Below, in pieces: positions 957 to 48,695 of a stretch of 64,000 bases of DNA. The position numbers were made by a program, and so were the translations under genes. Each line of letters begins with the position of its first letter. The first letter of the stretch is position 1. Source of the stretch: an uncultured Candidatus Saccharibacteria bacterium (GTDB lineage: Bacteria; Patescibacteriota; Doudnabacteria; UBA920). The stretch is from the NCBI GenBank assembly GCA_964505635.1, contig CAZDIP010000001.1, positions 40,174-104,173 on the forward strand, written 5' to 3'. Under the pieces are notes generated by a model that saw only the letters and a list, made by a program, of their open reading frames with translations, was not told where the DNA came from and did no database searches.

Positions 957-1027
957 GCGAGATTAGTACAGTGGTAGTATACTTGCTTCCCAAGCAAGAG
1001 AGGCGGGTTCGCCCCGCAGCATTTGTC
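957..1027 (+). pseudogene. Degenerate tRNA-Gly(CCC)-like copy. The acceptor 5' strand, D-arm and anticodon arm are intact, but the T-arm and 3' acceptor are defective.
   Basis: GCGAGAT-TA-GTAC/GTAT D-arm, anticodon stem CTTGC/GCAAG with loop TTCCCAA (anticodon CCC). The following T-arm cannot form a 5 bp stem with a 7 nt loop, and the 3' end does not pair with the 5' acceptor. Confidence 0.35.
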
Positions 1028-4951: not shown

Positions 4952-6247
4952 ATGCAAAATCAGCAAACAAAACTTTCTTTAGAGCCGTATAAAGGCACGA
5001 GAGATTTTTATCCGAAAGACCAATTCGTGCAGAACTATATTTTTTCCGTTTGGAAAAAAGTTTGTGAAAGTTACGGGTATTTGGAGTACGGCGCTTCTAT
5101 TTTGGAAGAGACCGAGCTTTATAAAAGCAAGTCCGGCGAGGAAATTGTAAACGAGCAAACCTACACTTTTATAGACCGCGGCGGCAGGAATGTGACCATT
5201 CGCCCGGAAATGACGCCTACAGTAGCCAGAATGGTGGCGCAAAAGCGCAAAGAGCTAACTTTTCCTTTGCGGTGGTTTAGCATCCCTAACCTTTTTAGGT
5301 ACGAAAGGCCGCAAAGAGGCAGGCTTAGGGAGCACTGGCAGCTTAACGCGGACATTTTTGGTGTTGACTCAATAGAGGCGGATGTGGAAATAATCTCTTT
5401 AGCTTATAGTATAATGAAAGGCTTCAAAGCTAAAGACGAACAATTTGTTATTCATTTAAACAGCCGAAAGTTTTTAAATTATCTTCTTAGGGAATATTTT
5501 AGGCTTTCCGAAGAACAAGCTTTAAAAACCGGCAAACTTTTAGACAGGATGGCGAAAATGACGCCTGCCGCTTTTGAAGAAAACGGCGTAGAAATTTTAG
5601 GCGCGGCTGAATTTAAAACTTTGCAGAAAATTATCGGCACCAACGATTTAGCAGAGTTGCCCGAGGATTTGCAAAAGCACGATTCAGTTACCCAGCTAAA
5701 ATTGGTATTTGAAAAATTGCGGGGAAATGGAATAGAAAATTTGGTTTTTGATATTGGGCTTGTAAGGGGTTTTGACTATTATACCGGCGCGGTATTTGAA
5801 GTATTTGATACTAGTCCGGAAAACGCCAGGTCGCTTTTCGGCGGCGGCAGGTATGACGACTTAGTTGGAATTTTTGATGTTGAAAAAGTTTCCGGGGTTG
5901 GTTTTGGCGTGGGCGATGTAACCATCCGCGATTTTTTGGAAACCCATAATTTGTTGCCGGAATATGCCTCGCCGGTTAAGCTTTATATTTGCCACCTTGA
6001 AGGCTATGTTGAAGAGGCTAATAAGTTAGCAAACTACTTAAGAGAGCAGGGAGTAAATGCGGCCGTTGATCTATCTGATAGAAAAGTTTCCCAGCAAGTT
6101 AAAACTGCGGATAAAGAAAGCATCCCATATGTTTTGGTTGTTGGGGAAGAAGAAATTAAAAGCGGGAAGTTTAAATTAAAAAATTTAAAGGAGAGCAGGG
6201 AAGAGGAGTTGGAAACAAAAGACATCGCGGCTTATTTAAAAAAATAG
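4952..6247 (+). CDS. hisS: Histidine--tRNA ligase
   Basis: MQNQQTKLSLEPYKGTRDFYP... shows class II aaRS motifs and the HisRS HGGGRYD-like block GGGRYDDL. The ORF track starts at 4868, but that extension overlaps the upstream terminator. Confidence 0.9.
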   Translation: MQNQQTKLSLEPYKGTRDFYPKDQFVQNYIFSVWKKVCESYGYLEYGASILEETELYKSKSGEEIVNEQTYTFIDRGGRNVTIRPEMTPTVARMVAQKRKELTFPLRWFSIPNLFRYERPQRGRLREHWQLNADIFGVDSIEADVEIISLAYSIMKGFKAKDEQFVIHLNSRKFLNYLLREYFRLSEEQALKTGKLLDRMAKMTPAAFEENGVEILGAAEFKTLQKIIGTNDLAELPEDLQKHDSVTQLKLVFEKLRGNGIENLVFDIGLVRGFDYYTGAVFEVFDTSPENARSLFGGGRYDDLVGIFDVEKVSGVGFGVGDVTIRDFLETHNLLPEYASPVKLYICHLEGYVEEANKLANYLREQGVNAAVDLSDRKVSQQVKTADKESIPYVLVVGEEEIKSGKFKLKNLKESREEELETKDIAAYLKK

Positions 6248-6248
6248 C

Positions 6249-6866
6249 ATGCAGCATTTAACCAGGTTATTTAAATTTTTGGAAATCACCAGGGCGCAGC
6301 CGCAATACGGCTATGTTTTAGCCAATATCCCTAAGTCCGAATTAAGCGACTTGGCTCAGCACCATTATTTAGTCACTTTTTTCGGATGGCAGCTGGCAAG
6401 GCTATTGAATAGAAAAGGCGCTAAAATAAACGTGGAAAAAGTTTTGGCCTACTGCCTGGTGCATGATTTGGGAGAGCTTCTGGGCGGTGATATTTCCATG
6501 CCGTATGGCCGGGTTAACCCCAAAGCTAAAAAATTAGCCAGGGCTTTTGAATACGAAAATATAAAATACATTTCAAAGTTTTTTGGGCAAGACGAAGCTT
6601 ATATAAGAGGTTTAGGCCTGGAGGTTAACGAGTTTAAAAACGATGAAAGCATTATTGCCATGATATCCGACGTAATAGAGTGCACCCATTATAAAATTTA
6701 CAAAAACCGCTTTATTCCTTTGGACGTTAAAATGGCAAAGGAAAAAATAGAAAAGCACATTAGCAGACTGAAAGACAAAGCCGCTAAACGGGAATTAAAT
6801 GAGTTTTTGAAAAAATGGTATAAGGAATTGCCAAAAAATAATCAGTTGGATAAGCTTTTAATTTAA
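6249..6866 (+). CDS. HD-domain hydrolase
   Basis: LAQHHYLV...LVHDLGELLGGD. Confidence 0.6.
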   Translation: MQHLTRLFKFLEITRAQPQYGYVLANIPKSELSDLAQHHYLVTFFGWQLARLLNRKGAKINVEKVLAYCLVHDLGELLGGDISMPYGRVNPKAKKLARAFEYENIKYISKFFGQDEAYIRGLGLEVNEFKNDESIIAMISDVIECTHYKIYKNRFIPLDVKMAKEKIEKHISRLKDKAAKRELNEFLKKWYKELPKNNQLDKLLI

Positions 6867-7651: not shown

Positions 7652-8064
7652 TCATGCTCTTACAGGTAGGCGTAAAAGTTTTGTTAAAAAATTCTGAGGG
7701 GAAATTTTTGCTTGTTCGCAGAAATCCCAAAAAATACCCCGAAGTCGGGCCTAAGTGGGACATTGTGGGGGGAAGGATTGAACCTGGAACATCGCTTTTG
7801 GAAAATTTAAAACGGGAAGTCTTGGAAGAAGTCGGTTTAAAATTATCGCTCCCTGTTAGGCTGGTTGGGGCGCAGGATATCCTTTTAGAGGACAAACATG
7901 TTGTGCGGCTAACCTATTTGGGAGAAATAGAAGGCGAGCCAAAAATTGACGAAGACCACACCGAAGCCAGATGGTTTTTAGCGGAGGAGTTAAAAAATTT
8001 GCCAAAAGCGGAGCTCGACAGTTATTTTTTGGAATTATTAAATAACCAAACTGTTAAAATTTAA
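7648..8064 (+). CDS. NUDIX hydrolase
   Basis: Nudix box GGRIEPGTSLLENLKREVLEEVGL. Confidence 0.75.
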   Translation: MIMLLQVGVKVLLKNSEGKFLLVRRNPKKYPEVGPKWDIVGGRIEPGTSLLENLKREVLEEVGLKLSLPVRLVGAQDILLEDKHVVRLTYLGEIEGEPKIDEDHTEARWFLAEELKNLPKAELDSYFLELLNNQTVKI

Positions 8065-20750: not shown

Positions 20751-20825
20751 TGGGGTGTAGCCAAGCGGTAAGGCAAACGGCTCTGAACCGTTCATTCCTA
20801 GGTTCGAATCCTAGCACCCCAGCCA
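20751..20825 (+). tRNA. tRNA-Gln (anticodon CTG)
   Basis: Acceptor TGGGGTG/CACCCCA, anticodon stem AACGG/CCGTT with loop CTCTGAA, T arm GGTTCGAATCC, and discriminator G plus CCA encoded. Confidence 0.85.
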
Positions 20826-22283
20826 CTTCTTATCATCGTGTGCTTTTACGATGCCAGCGAACACGGGTTTGAGCGTGAACATTGGCGTTTTTTGTTTCAA
20901 ACGGCAGTTCTGAAGAATGAAGTTCAGGAATTGCCTTTTTTCATTTGGTTCAGAACTTTCAAAGATTGAAAACGCACGCTTAGAAATATCCAGTATTCTA
21001 GCGGCGATTAAATAATGATTTTCATCAGCCTTGCTATGCTCGGCAATTTGCTGGGCAATGTCGGCCTGTTTTTCTTTATACTCTTTCAACTTTCTGTCAT
21101 ACATTTCGGGAGTAATACTACTGTCCATTTTTTCATCAAACATTTTGCTTATCCGGTCATCAATCTTGTTATACTCGGCTTGTAAGTTAGCAATGGCCTG
21201 CCTGTAAAAGTCCTGTTCGGCTTCAGTAGCCTTTCGTAAGCCCTTAACTACATAATCAATGCCTGCTTGGGGCAATTCTAAGCGTTTGAGCGTGTCATAA
21301 ATAGGCTCTAGCAAGACTTTTTCCGGCACATAGAGCCGTTTGCACTTGCCTCGGTAATTGGTGCAACTGTAATAGGTATATTTGCCCTTAGCTGTTTCGG
21401 GCGTAATTGTGCAGTTGCATACATCGCAACTTACTAGGCCTCTAAAAATAAAAGGTTTGGCCGCATACTGGAATGGTTTTTTATTCCAGCTCTCTCTGAC
21501 CTTTTGGCATTTCAAAAATAATTGTTTGGAAATTAAAGTTTCGTAATGGTGCGGATATTCAATGCCCTTAACCAACATAATGCCATAGTAAAAAGGTTCG
21601 CTTAAAATCTGTTCTATTTGGCTGGTTGATAGAGCCTTGCCTGACTTGGCCGTTAAGCCTAAATTTTTTACCAACTCGGAAATGGTTTTCATTGAGTATT
21701 TGCCGGTAGCATATAGCTCAAAAACTTTAACAACTAAAAAGCCTTTGTCTTGGTCAACAATAACATTGCTTTTGTCTTCATCATCCCTAAAATTTAAGTA
21801 GCCAATAGGGGCTTGGCCAATACATTCGCCTCGCTTTAGTTTTTGCTCAATACTGCGCTTAACATTATCGCTTAATTGCAAAACATAACTTCTTGCAAAC
21901 ATTACGGCCATATCCCATTGCAAAAGTTGCGAGCTGTTTGCGTCTTTGGTTAAAACTAAATTTTCTCTTACAAAGTGCAATTCAACTTTGCCTTGTTTCC
22001 GCAAGTCATCCAATACAACGCTTTCCTTAAAACTTCTTTGCAGCCTATCTACTGTTTCAACAACAAGCGCAAGCGTTTCTTTTGAGTTCTTTATAAGTGT
22101 TAAAACCTTTTCAAATTTTTTTCGGGTATCGTGAGTAGAACTCTCGGCAATTTCAAAAATGACTGGTGCTTCCAGTCCTTTTTTGTTTGCATATTCTTTC
22201 AACCGCCTAACCTGCGCCGGATTGGAATGGTCTTTTTCTTCCTGCTCTTTGGTTGAAACACGAGCTAAAATTATTGCTTTCAT
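20811..22283 (-). CDS. Large serine recombinase (phage-type integrase)
   Basis: N-terminal resolvase domain with the catalytic Ser in ILARVSTKEQ, a recombinase domain, a Cys-rich zinc ribbon CDVCNC...CTNYRGKC and a C-terminal coiled coil. 490 aa. Confidence 0.9.
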   Translation of the reverse strand: MKAIILARVSTKEQEEKDHSNPAQVRRLKEYANKKGLEAPVIFEIAESSTHDTRKKFEKVLTLIKNSKETLALVVETVDRLQRSFKESVVLDDLRKQGKVELHFVRENLVLTKDANSSQLLQWDMAVMFARSYVLQLSDNVKRSIEQKLKRGECIGQAPIGYLNFRDDEDKSNVIVDQDKGFLVVKVFELYATGKYSMKTISELVKNLGLTAKSGKALSTSQIEQILSEPFYYGIMLVKGIEYPHHYETLISKQLFLKCQKVRESWNKKPFQYAAKPFIFRGLVSCDVCNCTITPETAKGKYTYYSCTNYRGKCKRLYVPEKVLLEPIYDTLKRLELPQAGIDYVVKGLRKATEAEQDFYRQAIANLQAEYNKIDDRISKMFDEKMDSSITPEMYDRKLKEYKEKQADIAQQIAEHSKADENHYLIAARILDISKRAFSIFESSEPNEKRQFLNFILQNCRLKQKTPMFTLKPVFAGIVKAHDDKKWLGC

Positions 22284-30963: not shown

Positions 30964-30990
30964 AAACCGCCAAAAAGGCGGTTTTGTGTT
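30964..30990 (+). terminator. Intrinsic terminator (AAACCGCC-AAAAA-GGCGGTTT followed by TG)
   Basis: Seen directly in the sequence. Confidence 0.55.
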
Positions 30991-31003
30991 AAAATTAACT
31001 CAT

Positions 31004-31867
31004 ATGGAATATGAGCAGAATATAAGAGTAAATAGCCGGAATTTTTCATTGTTAGAGGCGCAAAGGGGTGGCTGCGCTATTTATGCTGGCGATGACTGTT
31101 TTTTAAGAATGGGCCTGCCGCAAAAGCTTTTAAAAGATTTAAAATTGCATAAGCAAATGGAGGGATTGGGTTTTCCGGTCGCCAGGCTGTTAGAAGAGGG
31201 GAAGTTTAAAGATTTTTCGTATTTTATAGAAGAATCTTTGGGACAAGAACATTTTGGGCGAATATTTAAAAATGACACCCAAAAGTTAGGTCATGTTTCA
31301 GACGAATTTTTTGCTAAATTTCTGGATGTTTGTTTAAAATTTGCCAAGGCTCAGCTTAAAAGTGTTGTTACCGGCAAAGACTGGCCTGGGTTTGAATATG
31401 GTATTCATTTGGACATTTTAGTTCAGGAATTGCCAAAAGAAAAAAAAGCTATTTTGATTAAATACGAAGCTTGCAGGGAGAAATTAAAAGTGTTTCCTTT
31501 TGGTATTTTGCACGGCGATTTCACCCCGTTTAATATTTGTCCAAAAGGCGTAATGGATTTGGAGGATTCTTTTTTAGGTCCCGTCGCTTTTGACATAAGC
31601 TCTCTTATGAGACTTCAGGATTGGTTTCCAGACACCTCAAACGACGAGTATCATAAAGTTTATAGGTTAACGCTTGAACAAAAAAATAATTTTATTTCAG
31701 CAGTGGATGATTTGTATGCAATAAATAATTTACCCAAACCTTCTTTGTTTGAAGAAGAATTCAATTTTTTAAAGGGAGTTTGGTTTTGTGTGCGCATGCA
31801 ACATATGCCGGAATTGCAAAGTTTTAGGTATAAAAAATTGTTAAGCTTGCTTTATGCCCAAAGTTAG
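31004..31867 (+). CDS. Phosphotransferase enzyme family (APH / choline-kinase-like) protein
   Basis: Brenner motif ILHGDFTPFNI and DLEDSFLGP. The ATG at 31004 is preferred over the GTG at 30986. Confidence 0.6.
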   Translation: MEYEQNIRVNSRNFSLLEAQRGGCAIYAGDDCFLRMGLPQKLLKDLKLHKQMEGLGFPVARLLEEGKFKDFSYFIEESLGQEHFGRIFKNDTQKLGHVSDEFFAKFLDVCLKFAKAQLKSVVTGKDWPGFEYGIHLDILVQELPKEKKAILIKYEACREKLKVFPFGILHGDFTPFNICPKGVMDLEDSFLGPVAFDISSLMRLQDWFPDTSNDEYHKVYRLTLEQKNNFISAVDDLYAINNLPKPSLFEEEFNFLKGVWFCVRMQHMPELQSFRYKKLLSLLYAQS

Positions 31868-41803: not shown

Positions 41804-41989
41804 ATGAACGAAGCAATAAAAATAAAACAAAATATTTTAAAACAGCTCCAGGGTTTATGCGCGCACTGTGTCACTAATTCAGTTAAGCCTCACAATTGTC
41901 CCGTTAAGCAGATTTCCTTGCGCATTCAGTCCCTTCGCGGCGTGCCTTTGGTGGTCAACAGCCAGTTTAAAGGCATGCTTTGGACATAA
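41804..41989 (+). CDS. Small Cys/His-containing hypothetical protein (61 aa)
   Basis: CAHC...HNCP could bind metal. Weak. Confidence 0.25.
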   Translation: MNEAIKIKQNILKQLQGLCAHCVTNSVKPHNCPVKQISLRIQSLRGVPLVVNSQFKGMLWT

Positions 41990-42039
41990 AAAGAGGGCTG
42001 CCTTCGTTCCTGGTGGGAAACTTGGGCAGCCCTGAGGGA

Positions 42040-42335
42040 AGCGTTCCATTGGGCAAATATTATTCCAACCCGCTTTCGCGCGGCTCAGTATGGCTGCTCC
42101 ATAGAGCGACAATCCGTCATGCGACGGGAAAGTCTTGCCATAAGGCCAGTTTTTGAAAGCGGGTCGCTCGCGGGAGCAAGCTTATAAGCTTAATGAGAAC
42201 GTTATGGATCCCCCTTTTATTGGCGGGTTGCCACTGCTTGTTAGGCAGCTCTCTACGGCAACCCGCCCTCTCGTCGGAGTACATATATTTTATTCTAAGG
42301 TGATTTTTTAGTCAAACAAATTAAAACCCCCTAAA
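42040..42335 (+). ncRNA. GC-rich structured segment with an RNase P RNA CR-I-like motif, a possible 5' part of an RNase P RNA gene
   Basis: CGTCATGCGACG hairpin, then GGGAAAGTC-TTG-CCATAAGGCCAG at 42126-42149, compared with the consensus P3-GGAAAGUCCGGGCUCCAUAGGGCAG. Also GGAGCAAG. A terminator hairpin follows at 42323-42352. Confidence 0.3.
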
Positions 42336-42352
42336 TTTTAGGGGGTTTTAAG
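42323..42352. terminator. Hairpin AAAACCCCCTAAA-TTT-TAGGGGGTTTT. It is the terminator for the minus-strand GIY-YIG gene and possibly for the plus-strand RNA.
   Basis: The stop codon of the GIY-YIG gene lies inside the hairpin. T-runs on both sides. Confidence 0.55.
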
Positions 42353-42580
42353 TAACTTTTGTTTTTTTGTTTTAGGCCATTTTTTTATTTCAGCCTCACG
42401 TTTTAAGGCCTTTATTTTGGTTTTGAATTTTTCAAAGTAGATTATTTTTCCGCCGCCGCGGCTTTTTACATATTTAGACCCCTTGCCTTGGTTATGAGCC
42501 AGTTCCCGTTTTTTAAGGTCATTGGTAATGCCGGCATAAAGGGACTTGTCTTTGCATAAAAAAAGGTAAAAGTAGTACAT
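42338..42580 (-). CDS. GIY-YIG nuclease family protein (YhbQ/UPF0213-like), 80 aa
   Basis: MYYFYLFLCKDKSLYAGITNDLKKRELAHNQGKGSKYVKSRGG. The ORF-track N-terminal extension (42581-42853, TTG start) is GC-rich and not protein-like, so it was trimmed. Confidence 0.75.
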   Translation of the reverse strand: MYYFYLFLCKDKSLYAGITNDLKKRELAHNQGKGSKYVKSRGGGKIIYFEKFKTKIKALKREAEIKKWPKTKKQKLLKTP

Positions 42581-42905
42581 ACAGGTATTATAACAATTTT
42601 TAAATTCAGTATTGTTTAAAATAGGAAGGCGCGCGTTTGCTTTGTGGGGCAAAACGCGCGCCGGAATGTGGCATACATCGCACGGGCATGTGCCCTTGTT
42701 TTTGTTACGACCGGGGAGTTTACCCGTGTAATGTATACCTTGGAGGAGACTATGAATCCTCTTTATAAAAAATGCGGGTTTGCGGCCAAGACAGGCTCTT
42801 GATTCCCCTTGCAAAGGAACTTGGTAGAAACCGCAAACCCGCTTCTCTCTCAAACGAACAGGAATAAAATGACTTTAGCATAGTTTTTGTAAATGGTAAA
42901 GAAGT
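42581..42905. ncRNA. GC-rich structured segment with RNase P-like motifs. Orientation unresolved.
   Basis: Read on the minus strand, CACGGGTAAACTCCCCGG (rc of 42709-42728) resembles the P15/L15 motif CACGGUAAACUCCACCCGG. Read on the plus strand, ACAGGAATAAAATGACTTTAGC (about 42857-42878) resembles the P4 3' strand ACAGAA..GGCUUA and can pair with GAAAGTC at 42126. Confidence 0.25.
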
Positions 42906-44625: not shown

Positions 44626-44872
44626 ATGTTTTTATAAGTATAGCGTATAGTTTGAATTTCTGAAAATTTTGGCAAAAGTAGAATACCAACAGAGATTTAA
44701 ATGATTTTTGCGGCAGTTTCATCCCACAGGGTATGATGAAAAAAGTCGGGGAATCTAAGTAGTAAAGCCTGAAGGGTCTACTACGGGATGCAGTTAAACC
44801 CCAATCGGGCTTCTCAGCTCCGGTGTCATTACTTAAACAAAACACTTCCACCATTAAGGTGAAAGTTTTTTT

Positions 44873-44948
44873 GGTAGCGCTACCCCGCACAACTTTCCGC
44901 CAGTTGGCGGAAAGTTGTGCGGGGCGCAGCGGGGAATTCCCCGAACCC
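44873..44948 (-). other. Partial duplicate of the tRNA-Glu 3' end interrupted by a perfect 19 bp-stem palindrome (candidate att remnant)
   Basis: Plus-strand TGGTAGCGCTAC + [CCCCGCACAACTTTCCGCC-AGTT-GGCGGAAAGTTGTGCGGGG] + GGGGAATTCCCCGAACCC, compared with the tRNA-Glu plus-strand TGGTAGCGCTACGGGGAATCGAACCCCGA at 46774. Confidence 0.4.
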
Positions 44949-44989
44949 AAAACCATGAAAAAGACCCGACGCAAGGTCGGGTACTTTTC

Positions 44990-45022
44990 ATGGTAGACCA
45001 AGTCGAGACAGGTGGAAAACTT
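44990..45022. repeat. Left copy of a perfect 33 bp inverted repeat (ATGGTAGACCAAGTCGAGACAGGTGGAAAACTT)
   Basis: Exact reverse complement of 48617-48649. Verified base by base over 29 nt, with about 2 nt more on each side. Confidence 0.8.
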
Positions 45023-45089
45023 TTCTCGCATTGGTAAAAGAGATTTATAATTTGTTTGTTACCAAGCCTATTGTCCCTAATGCTACTTT

Positions 45090-45686
45090 TTAGGTTTTGT
45101 TTTTTTGTTTATTTAATATGTCTGAAATTTGATAGCCTTTATAAATTATATGGCTATTTTCTCGTTCATAAATTTCTTTTTTCTCTTTTGAAGTAGAAAT
45201 CTCTCCGTCTAAGTATAAAGGATGGATGCCTATAGTAAACCAAATGGCTTTATATAACTCATCAATTTCATATAAGGTTAGGCTGTATTCTTTATGAACA
45301 CCAGAAGGTCGGTCATAATAAATTATCCAGCCATCATTTATTTTCATACTTTCATTTATATCCTCATTGTTATCTGGATAGCGAATTTCTTCCCATTGAT
45401 GCAATCTTTCTATAGTTTTTCGTTCGTCATATAGACTTAAATCCGCCTTTGGATACATTTCTTTAAATTTTTCCCAAATAGCTGGCAAATTATGACCAAG
45501 CTTTTCTTTTATAACTTTTTTTAGCAACATTTCAATAGCGTGATGAAAAAGATTTGCAGCTATAGGAATTAAACCGCCAAAAGTTGCCCATCTGGCTGCT
45601 AAATAGTATTGCACAGATATAGTCATATGCCGGTCTCGTGTAGTTTTGTCGTCCATAAATTTGTAATTACACCTTAAGACTTTCAT
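45090..45686 (-). CDS. HEPN-like domain protein (putative)
   Basis: LFHHAIEMLLKKVIKE and ERKTIERLHQ (Rx6H-like). The start may be M21 at 45626 (MTISV), which would avoid overlapping the kinase gene. Confidence 0.4.
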   Translation of the reverse strand: MKVLRCNYKFMDDKTTRDRHMTISVQYYLAARWATFGGLIPIAANLFHHAIEMLLKKVIKEKLGHNLPAIWEKFKEMYPKADLSLYDERKTIERLHQWEEIRYPDNNEDINESMKINDGWIIYYDRPSGVHKEYSLTLYEIDELYKAIWFTIGIHPLYLDGEISTSKEKKEIYERENSHIIYKGYQISDILNKQKNKT

Positions 45687-46650
45687 CTAACCAAGAGTTC
45701 TCATAAAAGTCAGAAATTTTATCTGCTGCTTTTTTTAAAGCACGCCCTTCCCATAAACCATTTTGGTGGTCAATTAAAGTCTCTAAAAATGGATCTAGGT
45801 AATAAAGCCTTACTCTGTTCGCTAAGTTAGGAACTTGAAATAGTGTCGGGTAATACTTTTTTAGCCAACCAAGTTCTTTAGTCATTTGGTAATCGCCGTA
45901 TAGGTGTTCTATTTTTTCTTCTACTGTAAATTTTGGGCGATGAAAGGTGTCCATAATTTTCCAAAGTTCGTAGTCCCTTGGTGCTTGGCAAGCCCAGTCT
46001 AAATCTATAATTCCGGTAAGCTGACCGTTTTTATGGAAAATATTTTCTAAATGTATATCTTGGTGAACCATTACGGCCGTGCCAGCTTCATCTAAGCTGG
46101 AAATGTTATTTTTGTAAAATTGCACTAACATATCGATTTTGTCAGCAATTTCCTTTGGAAGCTTGTCTTTTTGGATTAACTTAATTTCTTTTTCCGTTAA
46201 CCTTTCTACTGCATACTTTAAGTTGTTAAAAGAAGTATAGGAAACAATAGGCATACTATAACTGTCGCAGCTAATAGAGTGCCAAAGTTGTAGCTGTTCG
46301 GCTAGTTGTTCTATAAGGCTTTCTTTTTGACTATTGCTAAATGACATCCAATCGTAGACTAAATTATTACCTACTACCATTTCCATTAATATATAACGAT
46401 TGTCTTCAAATGAACCAAAGTCAATTATTTTAGGAACTTTTGCTCCTTTGCTTAAAAGTTTAGCTGTTATTTCTTGTGCTGGTTTTAAAATTTCATGTTC
46501 ACCTTTACCTTCCACCTTTAAAGCATATTTACCGCCTAGATTGTAGACACGATTAATAGAACCGCTTGAGAAACGTTTGGTTTCAAGCGATTGGTCTAAG
46601 TTATTTTTGTTAATTACAGACTGAATAATTTTAGAATATATGTCGTCCAT
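45667..46650 (-). CDS. Phosphotransferase enzyme family (APH / protein-kinase-like) protein
   Basis: VMVHQDIHLENIF (Brenner motif), IIDLDWA and a Gly-rich N-lobe. 327 aa. Confidence 0.6.
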   Translation of the reverse strand: MDDIYSKIIQSVINKNNLDQSLETKRFSSGSINRVYNLGGKYALKVEGKGEHEILKPAQEITAKLLSKGAKVPKIIDFGSFEDNRYILMEMVVGNNLVYDWMSFSNSQKESLIEQLAEQLQLWHSISCDSYSMPIVSYTSFNNLKYAVERLTEKEIKLIQKDKLPKEIADKIDMLVQFYKNNISSLDEAGTAVMVHQDIHLENIFHKNGQLTGIIDLDWACQAPRDYELWKIMDTFHRPKFTVEEKIEHLYGDYQMTKELGWLKKYYPTLFQVPNLANRVRLYYLDPFLETLIDHQNGLWEGRALKKAADKISDFYENSWLDESLKV

Positions 46651-46773
46651 TTATAAATTATAGCCCAAATTACTAATAAATAAAACAAAAAAGTTCTCCA
46701 CTTGTAGCATTGGAAAACTCTTGTGAATCAATATTGATAGTCAAAATTGTAACTTTTTAAACAAAAATTCATT

Positions 46774-46848
46774 TGGTAGCGCTACGGGGAATCGAACCCC
46801 GATTTGGTGGATGAGAACCACCTGTCCTAACCATTAGACGATAGCGCC
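46774..46848 (-). tRNA. tRNA-Glu (anticodon CTC)
   Basis: rc: GGCGCTA-TC-GTCTAATGGTTAGGACA-GGTGG-TTCTCAT-CCACC-AAAT-CGGGGTTCGATTCCCCG-TAGCGCT-A-CCA. Confidence 0.85.
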
Positions 46849-46976
46849 AAATTCCTAACAATTCTAGCAGTTATGAAAAAAATACTCAATAAACGAAAAT
46901 AAGTTGTTTTTTTAAAAAGCCTATTGCTCAAGCAAAGGAAAATGGAAAACTTTTTTGTTTAAAACAAAAGCAAATT

Positions 46977-47005
46977 TTGACAAAAGCTTAAAAATCGGCT
47001 ATACT
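46977..47005 (+). promoter_or_regulatory. Near-consensus sigma70 promoter (TTGACA-N17-TATACT) driving the RT leader
   Basis: TTGACA at 46977-46982, a 17 nt spacer and TATACT at 47000-47005. Confidence 0.55.
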
Positions 47006-47011
47006 GTGGTC

Positions 47012-47298
47012 ATCGGGGTGGAAACCGAATAGGTTTTAACACCGACCAAAGGAATTTAACCTTTATAACAAATCGGAGAGCCAGAGCGCCCTAGCCATAA
47101 GGCAGACAGATATGAGCAGATATGCTATAATAAAGTTAGAGACCTTCCGCTTTGAGACAAACATTAAAATGTTCGCCGACAAAGTGGGAAATGCCTTTAA
47201 AAGAATACCAAGTAAAGTTGGAGCTATTAAAGAGCACTCCATTTGGAAGCTGATTAGGCGCTTGAGTTATGTAATCAGCCTCCTCCCAAATTAAAAAT
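47012..47298 (+). ncRNA. Candidate RT-associated noncoding RNA / structured leader (~285 nt) between the promoter and the RT start codon
   Basis: No SD before the RT. Contains a 12 bp hairpin GGAAGCTGATTA...TAATCAGCCTCC at 47245-47283, ending 15 nt before the RT ATG. Only a weak 60 aa ORF lies inside. Confidence 0.35.
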
Positions 47299-48609
47299 AT
47301 GGAAAATTTATTGAGCCGGCTTGGCTCTTTTATTTTGCTTGAGAAACAGGCAAAAAACGTTAATAAGCAAATTAAACGGAATGCGAAAAAGAATAAAATC
47401 GCCAATCCGCGCTTTTTTAACTTGGAAGAACTTAAGACATTACCAGAAAAAATATTAAATAAAAGTTTTACATTTGATTTACTCCGTGCCAAGACTATAC
47501 CAAAGCCTGGCAAAACCAAACGAAGACCGCTCTCAATACCAACGCCGAGAGACAGGGTCGTTTATGGTGTATTAAACAGACTGCTAAAACCTGCTCTTAT
47601 TGGGTATTTAAATCAAGCGCCTTCTTATGGAATATTAAAAAAACGCGGCGTGCATGGAGCGTATACTGAGATAAAAAAGCATTTAGCAGATGGTTGTCAT
47701 TATGTTCTAAAAGTTGATATCCAAGATTTTTTTAATAAAATTGACAAGGGAATTTTATCATTTATTTTATTTCCAAGAATTGCCAATACCGCTGACTCCT
47801 CAATTAACCATTTAATTAGGGACTGCTTAAAATTTGAATATAAGTCTTTACCGGAAGAGGAGGAGTTAAGAAAACTTTTTCCTACAAAATATTATGGCAT
47901 CGCACAAGGCAACGCTTTATCTCCACTATTTGCTGATGTCTACCTAAAGCTATTTGACTCGGAACTTAAACGTTCCGGTTTTAAAGTTGTTAGGTATGTT
48001 GATGATTTAATTGTTTTTACAAAAACAAAAAAGGAACTTTATCCAGCTTACATAAAAATTAAAAACTGTCTTAAGCCTCTAAAGCTAACTATAGATAAAT
48101 ACAATACGGGTAAATGTATAGCAACTGATATTACTCGGCATGTTGAATTTTTAGGCGTAGACATTGGACCGGGACAGATTTTAACAATACAGGGAAATAG
48201 GGTGCAAGCACTTAGGAGTAAGCTCTCGGCTTTATTAGATAGATTCTATAACAAGCGCTTTGTTCATATTTCCTATAAAGAAAAAATGGACGGTATTAAT
48301 GGACTGATTGAAGGTTGGGCTGGCGCGTATAGTATGTGTGACCGTGCTTATTTAGCAGATTTGTATGAGAAGCTAAATAAAATGATAAATAGTAATATTG
48401 ACAGCCTTTTAAATCGCGGGCTTATTGTCCAAAAAGAGCACGATTATCTATTTAATAATGTAAGACGTTTCCATTTACCTACTGGCAAAAAACGAAAGAT
48501 TACGAGGAAGAAAAAATCTCGCTATAGTTACGGAGTCAAGCCATCAAAAGGCCAATTGAAGATTTGGAGTGGCGGTATTTATAATTTAAGAGTAAATGTC
48601 CTTTACTAG
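47299..48609 (+). CDS. Reverse transcriptase (retron/group-II-like RT domain with a thumb; no endonuclease domain)
   Basis: RT motifs: RRPLSIPTPRDRVVYGVL (1/2), SYGILKKRGVHGAY (2a), YVLKVDIQDFFNKI (A), GIAQGNALSPLFADVYL (B'), RYVDDLIVF (C) and EFLGVDI (7), then a GLIEGWAGAYS thumb motif. 436 aa. Confidence 0.85.
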   Translation: MENLLSRLGSFILLEKQAKNVNKQIKRNAKKNKIANPRFFNLEELKTLPEKILNKSFTFDLLRAKTIPKPGKTKRRPLSIPTPRDRVVYGVLNRLLKPALIGYLNQAPSYGILKKRGVHGAYTEIKKHLADGCHYVLKVDIQDFFNKIDKGILSFILFPRIANTADSSINHLIRDCLKFEYKSLPEEEELRKLFPTKYYGIAQGNALSPLFADVYLKLFDSELKRSGFKVVRYVDDLIVFTKTKKELYPAYIKIKNCLKPLKLTIDKYNTGKCIATDITRHVEFLGVDIGPGQILTIQGNRVQALRSKLSALLDRFYNKRFVHISYKEKMDGINGLIEGWAGAYSMCDRAYLADLYEKLNKMINSNIDSLLNRGLIVQKEHDYLFNNVRRFHLPTGKKRKITRKKKSRYSYGVKPSKGQLKIWSGGIYNLRVNVLY

Positions 48610-48616
48610 AGCCAAA

Positions 48617-48649
48617 TAAGTTTTCCACCTGTCTCGACTTGGTCTACCA
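48617..48649. repeat. Right copy of the perfect 33 bp inverted repeat, 8 nt after the RT stop and before the RT terminator
   Basis: AAGTTTTCCACCTGTCTCGACTTGGTCTACCAT is the rc of 44990-45022. Confidence 0.8.
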
Positions 48650-48669
48650 TCATTTAGATAATCCCTTCT

Positions 48670-48695
48670 AAACCGCTAATTTGGCGGTTTTTGTA
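48670..48695 (+). terminator. Intrinsic terminator after the RT (AACCGC-TAATTT-GCGGTT followed by TTTTGTAATTT)
   Basis: Seen directly in the sequence. Confidence 0.5.

Follow-up and report, generated by a model that had tools for sequence, protein, structure and literature searches.

What does it mean when two perfect inverted repeats bracket a reverse transcriptase (RT) gene, a tRNA gene and a kinase gene? The question is raised by a 64-kb stretch of contig CAZDIP010000001.1 from an uncultured Candidatus Saccharibacteria bacterium (hereafter the window), in which the original prediction, made from the sequence letters, described perfect 33-bp inverted repeats around one module consisting of an RT with an upstream noncoding RNA (ncRNA), a tRNA-Glu gene, a kinase and an open reading frame (ORF) of 198 aa labelled HEPN. 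Here we describe these repeats as the conserved part of a dispersed element, called E. The repeats appear to mark a hotspot of cassette shuffling and not the ends of a single RT/kinase device.

The repeats in the window belong to a dispersed 58-nt element

Two exact occurrences of the 33-mer AAGTTTTCCACCTGTCTCGACTTGGTCTACCAT are present in the window, one on the minus strand (44990-45022) and one on the plus strand (48618-48650), with none expected by chance and a match in 0/100 shuffles, so that the predicted perfect repeat exists and has exactly two copies, the right one having been placed one base off (48617-48649). Identity was said to drop to background immediately outside the 33 bp; this holds on the outer side, but on the inner side the arms run on to 58 nt (44990-45047 and 48593-48650), with 86% identity overall and 17/25 identical positions in the inner extra part, which fits the family-wide consensus of the element. 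Because the homology reaches 58 nt inward, the right arm covers the last 17 nt of the RT gene. The right 33-mer starts 8 nt past the RT stop (TAG 48607-48609) and the left one 67 nt past the stop codon of the 198-aa ORF (45090-45092), and each repeat is followed by a terminator-like hairpin (44982-44964, minus strand, and 48670-48690, plus strand), in line with the terminators that had been noted. The corresponding features are as follows; loci outside the window carry L numbers, and GH1 is the glycosidase gene beside the right arm.

44990..45047, minus strand: first copy of the element (E1), 58 nt, with the invariant 33-mer at 44990-45022 and the 3' end ...GGTCTACCA at 44991; closes the cassette of the kinase and the 198-aa ORF
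44953..44989, minus strand: hairpin and T-run right after E1 (stem 44982-44964, dG -16.7), intrinsic-terminator-like
48593..48650, plus strand: second copy (E2), 58 nt, with the invariant 33-mer at 48618-48650; closes the cassette of the ncRNA and the RT
48670..48695, plus strand: terminator after E2, aaaccgctaatttggcggttttt; its homologue in L009 lies directly after a tRNA-Glu remnant, before the GH1 gene

The central 24-mer CACCTGTCTCGACTTGGTCTACCA was found exactly in 12 GTDB species-representative genome stretches, labelled Candidatus Saccharibacteria, Doudnabacteria or Patescibacteria, and in three metagenome contigs, and it seeded the sample of 16 loci (the window and 15 outside) analyzed here. 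In all carriers it is the 3' part of a block of about 58 nt, TAAAT...AAGTTTTCC...GGTCTACCA, which has sharp edges (TAAAT at the 5' side, ACCA at the 3' side) and flanks unrelated between loci. The consensus of E is TAAATCTCyCTTACCAAAGCCAArwAAGTTTTCC-ACCTGTCTCGACTTGGTCTACCA, and a profile search of the same loci added diverged members, bringing the total to 26 copies. Hence the repeat is not private to the module, and the module-specific reading fails by the refuting condition that the original prediction had itself named, a dispersed repeat without relation to the genes of the module. The 24-mer had no match in two scans of IMG/VR viral contigs, in INPHARED phages or in PLSDB plasmids, and a phage or plasmid origin of E was rejected on these grounds; the family has no Rfam match at the gathering or E-value threshold, and literature searches with the sequence string and keywords found no description of it. 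The GH1 glycosidase is 60-61% identical at the amino acid level to its orthologues in L009 and L017. The carriers are therefore not near-identical strains, which argues that the conservation of 24-33 noncoding nucleotides is selective.

The two window copies belong to different subtypes. The variable 5' half of E1 is identical to that of the copy in L015 (26/26), the nearest relatives of the E2 half are the copies in L019, L016 and L022 (22/26), and the two halves match each other at 18/26 positions, each being nearer to the copies of other genomes. By these comparisons, E1 and E2 are two independently acquired copies and not a pair made in place, the perfect identity over 33 bp being due to the family-wide invariance of the 33-mer and not to a local duplication. 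The differing 5' halves and flanks, together with the nearer relatives that both copies have in other genomes, make it very unlikely that one of them is an artefact of assembly.

Within E, the 9-mer AGTTTTCCA recurs in the leaders that follow tRNA-Glu and in a hairpin module upstream of cassette promoters; the window contains six occurrences against 1.3 expected, four of them inside 45013-48627, and the 9-mer could be a putative protein-binding motif. The diverged variants of the 3' half each retain a short dyad (CCACCTGTTCCGAGATGG, CCAGCCGTACAGAGCGGG, CCAGCCGTTCAGACGGTA), and in two diverged copies, L017b and L022c, TTCC is followed by an additional GC hairpin, which has the same insertion point in both. 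Because the variants keep dyads and two copies gain a hairpin, a hairpin-like feature of some kind may adjoin CTACCA.

E closes cassettes with unrelated cargo

For 22 of the 26 copies a same-strand ORF ends close by, at a point from 17 nt within E to 80 nt ahead of it. These ORFs are mutually unrelated: they code for an ABC transporter, an aminotransferase and proteins resembling a nucleoside deoxyribosyltransferase, a TrmB regulator and a methyltransferase, and many are of unknown function. Three copies have an opposite-strand gene upstream, coding for a Fic protein, a HEPN(DUF86)-MNT pair (translations read by eye) and an uncharacterised 131-aa ORF. Within about 40 nt after the terminal CTACCA, a hairpin with a T-run is present at 30 of the 34 junctions formed by E copies, tRNA-Glu ends and tRNA remnants, its sequence being different at each site. 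Same-strand head-to-tail arrays were found in L020 (four copies in 3.7 kb), L022 (three copies) and L010, L016, L017 and L018 (two copies each), with copies spaced 0.66-2.1 kb apart and E always oriented as the tRNA. In the 15 loci outside the window the copies are single or in direct arrays and never form an inverted pair bracketing a unit.

A cassette of this kind, in Saccharibacteria-like genomes of the Candidate Phyla Radiation (CPR), would consist of a terminator hairpin, often a AGTTTTCCA leader and a promoter, one or two cargo ORFs and E, and such cassettes would be stacked head to tail, most visibly downstream of tRNA-Glu.

A further motif, TTTGATTTGGTTTTATTG, recurs just after the hairpins at cassette 5' ends (L010 at about 7770-7800, L011 at about 2445-2475, L016 at about 6610-6640, L022 at about 6020-6050 and L023 at about 6330-6345) and is 100% identical over 30 nt between L010, L011 and L022; its counterpart in the window is TTTTCATGGTTTTGGGTT, at 44943-44962 on the minus strand.

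Linkage to tRNA-Glu and exchangeable junctions

Seven of the 15 outside loci, and the window, have a tRNA-Glu gene (CUC or UUC) and no other tRNA gene at 0.8-3.8 kb from E, as identified by ARAGORN. In six of these seven loci and for E1, tRNA and element share a strand, the element being the downstream one, and one or two variable ORFs separate them; in L009 and for E2 the element is on the other side of tRNA-Glu and faces away. One or two tRNA-Glu genes are usual for a CPR genome, whose size is about 1 Mb. Proximity within 4 kb is thus expected for about 1-2% of copies, and the association of E with tRNA-Glu is far beyond chance. The features around the tRNA in the window are the following.

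46774..46848, minus strand: tRNA-Glu (CUC), 3' end ...GTAGCGCTACCA; proposed chromosomal entry site of cassettes
46651..46773, minus strand: leader after tRNA-Glu ('Block B'), with AGTTTTCCA at 46711-46719 and a hairpin AGTTTTCCA...TGGAGAACTTTTTT; common to L016 and L017 (84-89% over about 98 nt)
46919..46960, plus strand: 'Block D'-like module at the cassette 5' end, TTGCTCAAGCAA hairpin and TGGAAAACTTTTTTG, with AGTTTTCCA on the minus strand at 46943-46951
44872..44943, minus strand: remnant of a tRNA-Glu 3' end, GTAGCGCTACCA at 44872-44883 and a T-arm-like GGGGAATTCCCC at 44930-44943, split by a perfect 42-nt palindrome at 44883-44924

The 'Block D'-like module also precedes cassette promoters in L022 and L023. 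In the window, L011, L012, L013, L016, L017 and L022, the cargo starts immediately behind the tRNA-Glu ACCA, and degenerate tRNA-Glu 3' ends (...CCCCGTAGCGCTACCA) are found 40-200 nt past E and its hairpin for E1 and in L009 and L011. At this far boundary the tRNA 3' segment is a direct repeat for E1 (12 nt and a T-arm relic) and in L011; the L009 remnant, 24 nt with the T-loop included, is inverted relative to the intact tRNA. Between the cassettes of arrays such as L020, tRNA remnants are absent. The remnant at 44872-44943 appears to mark the old distal boundary of an island integrated in tRNA-Glu. The palindrome within it has perfect arms of 20 + 20 bp with a 2-nt loop, CCCCGCACAACTTTCCGCCA / TGGCGGAAAGTTGTGCGGGG, and is GC-rich, unlike its surroundings. 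In L013 the order is tRNA-Glu, a tyrosine integrase directly after it, a 209-aa ORF and E.

E and tRNA-Glu have their last six bases, CTACCA, in common (GGTCTACCA and GCGCTACCA, respectively). A comparison of the 400 nt following each of the 34 CTACCA ends (E, tRNA-Glu and remnants) yielded four clear cases in which the same sequence follows ends of different kinds. The sequence after tRNA-Glu in L012 corresponds to that after E in L020 (87% over 321 nt, which include a hairpin, a leader that has GTTTTCC at +56, and an ORF of 78 aa), the homology starting from base +1 in both and the sequences left of TACCA being unrelated. The sequence after the remnant in L011 corresponds to that after E in L016 (97% over 34 nt), the terminator after the window remnant (44866-44844) to the terminator after E in L011 (86% over 36 nt), and the terminator and GH1 promoter following the L009 remnant recur after E2, beyond a 20-nt spacer. 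Because E and tRNA-Glu share only six bases, homologous recombination cannot set these breakpoints, and a process that treats the ends of E and tRNA-Glu as equivalent is therefore required. A sequence that adjoins the tRNA in one genome and lies beyond the tRNA and an E in another would be the pattern expected of successive insertion beside the tRNA. In L017, tRNA-Glu and GH1 are just 148 nt apart; as the tRNA adjoins GH1 there, the window segment 46849-48700 (leader, ncRNA, RT and E) is an insertion relative to L017.

A candidate site of cassette recombination

Behind the observed dispersal, architecture, tRNA-Glu linkage and exchangeable junction we infer site-specific DNA recombination at CTACCA, and with it the direction of the exchange. 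We give an even chance to the reading in which E is a recombination site carried by the cassettes and the 3' end of tRNA-Glu is where they enter. E would then be an attC- or attP-like site, each new cassette would enter the chromosome beside the 3' end of tRNA-Glu, pushing older cassettes outward, and the recombinase would probably act in trans. In the window, the left unit would be a canonical cassette downstream of the tRNA (tRNA-Glu, junction, leader, kinase, 198-aa ORF, E1, junction, hairpin, tRNA remnant), and the right unit (leader, promoter, ncRNA, RT, E2, junction, terminator, GH1) a second cassette of opposite orientation, in a layout shared with L009. Because two cassettes flank tRNA-Glu in opposite orientation, E1 and E2 face outward and mimic terminal inverted repeats. 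The general idea of a mobility or recombination signal just ahead of a terminator, which the original prediction had put forward, agrees with these observations.

More tentatively, as a possibility that we do not regard as probable, E and the tRNA-Glu 3' end may form an integron-like capture system specific to CPR/Saccharibacteria. Its site would mimic the end of a tRNA gene (a small hairpin and CTACCA), and a recombinase or transposase encoded elsewhere would insert cassettes equipped with promoters and terminators (toxins, kinases, an RT etc.) beside tRNA-Glu and earlier cassettes. CPR genomes are very small, and little is known of how they gain or lose accessory and defence genes. If true, a capture system would mean that such small genomes turn over their accessory genes at a dedicated locus that had gone unrecognised. 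A 58-bp tag would make the variable gene pool searchable, by scanning for the tag and reading the cargo, and suggests a site-specific mechanism that could be exploited for Saccharibacteria genetics.

Several points weigh against E as a recombination site. No recombinase is consistently linked to E: an integrase is present in one of the 16 loci (L013), and its family is rare (5 members in 5.8 billion proteins), for which reason it was rejected as the general recombinase. No tyrosine recombinase was found among the window ORFs tested and no recombinase near the window module, the island there holding just the kinase and the 198-aa ORF. Nothing is conserved to the right of the crossover, so that a classical two-armed core site of a tyrosine or serine recombinase is not evident. 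Among the 16 loci we saw no circular cassette, within-species empty-site polymorphism or inversion, and for half of the copies the available DNA does not contain tRNA-Glu. Seeding with the exact 24-mer over-represents the invariant variant. Finally, the near-universal terminator and the tight spacing after stop codons fit a role at RNA 3' ends just as well.

Alternative explanations

Such an RNA role is the strongest competitor, itself rather unlikely in our estimate. E would act as a largely unstructured 3'-untranslated-region or 3'-end module, or as a small RNA (sRNA), co-transcribed with the gene ahead of it and ending at the adjacent intrinsic terminator, and the shuffling would be a by-product of recombination between conserved copies; it might bind a conserved protein or RNA partner, act as a stabiliser or be a processing signal yielding a tRNA-like ...ACCA end. 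The position of 22/26 copies at most 80 nt downstream of a same-strand stop, the hairpin and T-run after 30/34 junctions, and the constant orientation in arrays, that of the tRNA, are all consistent with this role. So are the ACCA end, which E shares with mature tRNA, the GC hairpin inserted after TTCC in L017b and L022c, since structured RNAs tolerate such insertions, and the invariance over 33 nt, which exceeds that usual for recombinase arm sites. However, RNAalifold predicted no consensus structure for the 26 copies (0 pairs), two helices proposed by hand (ACCAA/UUGGU and a small hairpin in the 3' half) had no double-sided changes and did not exceed shuffles, and Rfam gave no match. For at least 3-4 copies the preceding gene is on the opposite strand and no convincing promoter for E itself is present, and an RNA role leaves unexplained the exact exchange at CTACCA between E and tRNA-Glu, which share 6 nt. 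On balance, the data favour a recombination site at the DNA level over a function at RNA 3' ends; both could coexist.

Four more specific candidates at the RNA or protein level were rejected. An independent sRNA with its own promoter is contradicted by the lack of a consistent -35/-10 before the copies that follow opposite-strand genes. A reverse-strand micro-ORF of 15 codons (NTG-VDQVETGGKLFWLW) has a start codon in all 17 exact-core copies, but diverged variants alter the peptide freely and one has an in-frame stop. Antisense pairing between E (CCACCUGUC) and tRNA-Glu (GACAGGUGG) shows no covariation with the local tRNA-Glu in other loci and is probably a coincidence. E is not called as a tRNA-like gene by ARAGORN or Rfam, and has only about 5 bp of acceptor-like pairing, again without covariation.

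It is improbable that the loci are ordinary tRNA-targeted islands and nothing more, with E as the decaying P-arm of an attP site from one integrase-bearing family, left behind by tandem accretion and without present function. The tRNA-Glu remnants past E in the window, L009 and L011, the integrase adjoining tRNA-Glu in L013 and the arm-type-like AGTTTTCC motifs on both sides of the junction point in this direction. A decaying relic, however, would not stay invariant over 24-33 nt among genomes whose GH1 proteins are about 60% identical; arrays such as L020 have no tRNA remnants between cassettes, and the integrase family is rare.

Least probable is the view that the inverted copies work as a pair, as terminal inverted repeats of one 3.7-kb non-autonomous element or as crossover sites of an invertible tRNA-Glu/kinase/RT block, the RT being in either case functionally linked with the kinase and the 198-aa ORF: it accounts for the perfect 33-bp inverted identity 3.6 kb apart and for the same divergent tRNA-Glu layout with an outward-facing E in L009, but the outer flanks share no direct repeat that would be a target-site duplication (ggtacttttc at 44980-44989 vs catttagata at 48651-48660), the copies elsewhere are single or in direct arrays, E1 and E2 are of different subtypes, RT homologues sit with an AAA_21 ATPase and RloB and without E, kinase homologues occur without RT, E and the 198-aa ORF, and L017 has no RT side at all.

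The terminal repeats of a single non-autonomous cassette that had been proposed thus find no support in the flanks, in the other loci or in the subtypes. The same holds for a shared site tying the RT to the HEPN/kinase genes, as the same E follows many unrelated ORFs and the homologues of the RT and of the kinase have no E. As L009 shares the layout, the divergent arrangement is old or recurrent. Should E be a recombination site, E1 and E2, being inverted, could formally recombine with each other and so invert the 3.6 kb between them; no alternative orientation was seen.

Comparison with known systems

The proposed recombination site resembles the attC sites of integrons. In both cases the cassettes are short and co-oriented, each with one or two ORFs and, no more than tens of bases further on, a site of about 58 nt (in integrons the '59-base element'), the boundary lies at the 3' edge of the site so that the first bases beyond it travel with the next cassette, the cargo is diverse and mostly of unknown function, and opposite-strand cassettes include genes of toxin-antitoxin type. 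Unlike E, attC is an imperfect palindrome with R''-L''/L'-R' boxes and a GTTRRRY core, neither of which is present in the E alignment; its structure is conserved and its sequence variable, whereas E has a conserved sequence and no conserved structure. Integrons have an adjacent IntI, an attI site and a Pc promoter, and E arrays have none of these, their anchor being the tRNA-Glu 3' end. In contrast to integron cassettes, those with E carry their own terminators and often their own promoters. A literature search, which was not exhaustive, found no report of integrons in CPR.

In anchoring, the E loci resemble the tycheposons of Prochlorococcus, another organism with a streamlined genome, which integrate at the 3' part of tRNA genes so that newer insertions push older ones inward (bioRxiv 10.1101/2020.12.28.424599). 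Tycheposon islands contain scattered partial tRNA remnants and degenerate elements, their cargo is adaptive or defence-related, their boundaries are partial-tRNA repeats of about 40 nt, and they carry their own tyrosine recombinase (bioRxiv 10.1101/2020.12.28.424599). As in these islands, and in the accretion of cis-mobilizable and integrative mobilizable elements (CIME/IME), the E loci would have grown by tandem accretion anchored at a tRNA, with remnants in the window, L009 and L011 and an integrase in L013. Here, however, most boundaries are formed by E, whose identity with the tRNA is limited to CTACCA. The units measure 0.7-2 kb, and almost all of them have no integrase.

The pdif modules of Acinetobacter plasmids likewise carry small toxin-antitoxin or resistance cargo, delimited by a short site, with the enzyme encoded elsewhere; pdif sites are 28-bp XerC/XerD sites with a dyad and alternate in orientation. 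E cassettes are similar in being small modules bounded by a short conserved site, but E lacks dyad symmetry and is arrayed in direct orientation. Right ends of IS200/IS605 type consist of a hairpin, a short linker and a cleavage tetranucleotide. Like these ends and the repetitive extragenic palindromes and bacterial interspersed mosaic elements (REP/BIME), E is intergenic, just downstream of genes and beside terminators; its 3' part can be read as a small hairpin, 2-4 nt and CTACCA, and insertion apparently takes place on the 3' side of a short target, which the end of the element itself restores, as in IS200/IS605. In contrast to both, no Y1 or REP-associated tyrosine transposase (RAYT) was seen at E, the hairpins at the left ends of the cassettes are not conserved in sequence, and the copy number is low.

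We therefore class the E system as a variant of site-specific cassette or island accretion, nearest to integrons in architecture and to tycheposon-like islands in anchoring. It is set apart from both, since the features of attC and IntI are missing, the repeated boundary does not consist of a partial tRNA and an integrase is absent from nearly every unit.

Cargo of the window cassettes

The genes bracketed by E1 and E2 and the region upstream of the RT are listed below.

45090..45686, minus strand: 198-aa ORF (the 'HEPN' of the original prediction), cargo of the left cassette
45667..46650, minus strand: APH-family phosphotransferase, 327 aa (Pfam APH, 1.5e-17), cargo of the left cassette
46977..47298, plus strand: promoter-like site (TTGACA-17-TATACT at 46977-47005), then a noncoding stretch of about 300 nt leading up to the RT
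47299..48609, plus strand: RT gene (436 aa) carried by the right cassette; its product is a relative of group II intron RTs

For the 198-aa ORF, the name HEPN has only a GHNL...RYPD motif, read by eye, in its favour and was not confirmed: Pfam, PADLOC, NCBIfam and PDB gave no match, and a single-sequence AlphaFold model had a pLDDT (predicted local distance difference test) of 38, too low for use. The 37 homologues found for the kinase have unrelated neighbourhoods, and the kinase-homologue loci L024-L028 contain no E, no RT and no homologue of the 198-aa ORF. As the kinase homologues are without these partners, nothing ties the RT to the kinase or to the 198-aa ORF, and the genomic contexts offer no evidence of a functional tie. 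In the annotation of the window, RT, kinase and 198-aa ORF are thus separate cargo and not one RT-kinase-HEPN system. A second APH-family phosphotransferase ORF (293 aa, 30986-31867, plus strand) lies 14 kb from the cassette kinase, and in L024 and L028 the kinase homologues also occur as tandem APH pairs.

The best curated match of the RT is a group II intron RT/maturase model (161 bits, under the cut-off of 300), followed by weaker PADLOC matches to UG17, UG26 and UG4. The family is tiny, with 10 matches in 5.8 billion proteins. The closest homologue (45% identity), from Candidatus Buchananbacteria, comes after an AAA_21 ATPase and RloB (L001, 7784-11257), a defence-like set of partners that is absent from the window. 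No E was found by nhmmer in the RT-homologue loci L001-L008 (30-46% identity), nor any RT homologue in the 15 outside loci bearing E.

Several blocks of the noncoding region ahead of the RT are conserved in the loci of its two nearest homologues (L001, 9655-10000; L007, 40-406), for example AAACC..AGGTTT, ATCAGAGAGCC(C/A)GAGC(A/G)CC and GCTGA..AGG.GCT..TCAGC. The region of about 300 nt is likely an RT-associated ncRNA; it has no Rfam match. An inverted repeat of 24 nt with 83% complementarity connects the leader before the RT promoter (46919-46942) with RT codons 10-18 (47328-47351).

Three retroelement-based roles of E were considered and ruled out. An element recognised by the RT, such as the 3' tail of a retron or retroelement, would require that E and the RT family be conserved together, which they are not. 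Group II intron or retron boundaries are excluded because Rfam found no such RNA and the RT-homologue loci have no E. The template and variable repeats (TR/VR) of a diversity-generating retroelement (DGR) are excluded because the eight mismatches between the arms (C/G, T/C, C/T, A/G, T/A, G/C, G/A, A/T) are not adenine-specific.

Other observations

A large serine recombinase of 490 aa (Resolvase, Recombinase and Zn_ribbon_recom domains; 20811-22283, minus strand) overlaps the 3' end of a tRNA-Gln gene (20751-20825, plus strand) and is followed by a 1033-aa ORF; the locus 20751-22283 is probably a separate element integrated at tRNA-Gln.

In an AT-rich region of the window, two GC-rich, structured-looking blocks (41830-42290 and 42620-42850), for which Rfam gave no family at E<=0.01, flank a small GIY-YIG nuclease ORF (42338-42853, minus strand). 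The blocks could belong to an RNA gene, so far unrecognised, into which an intron or a homing endonuclease has inserted.

A GIY-YIG ORF (5275-5535) is also present in the Buchananbacteria RT-homologue locus L001, where it is flanked by duplicated 5' pieces of tRNA-Glu with an inserted hairpin. The tRNA-Glu gene itself (5540-5613) lies within a perfect 24-bp inverted repeat (5522-5545 / 5607-5630), and the segment 5176-5842 as a whole looks like a split or invaded tRNA-Glu gene.

Near the left end of the window, Rfam identified a weak second tRNA (38 bits; 957-1021, plus strand) just upstream of tRNA-Gly (1028-1101), at a position where ARAGORN made no call.

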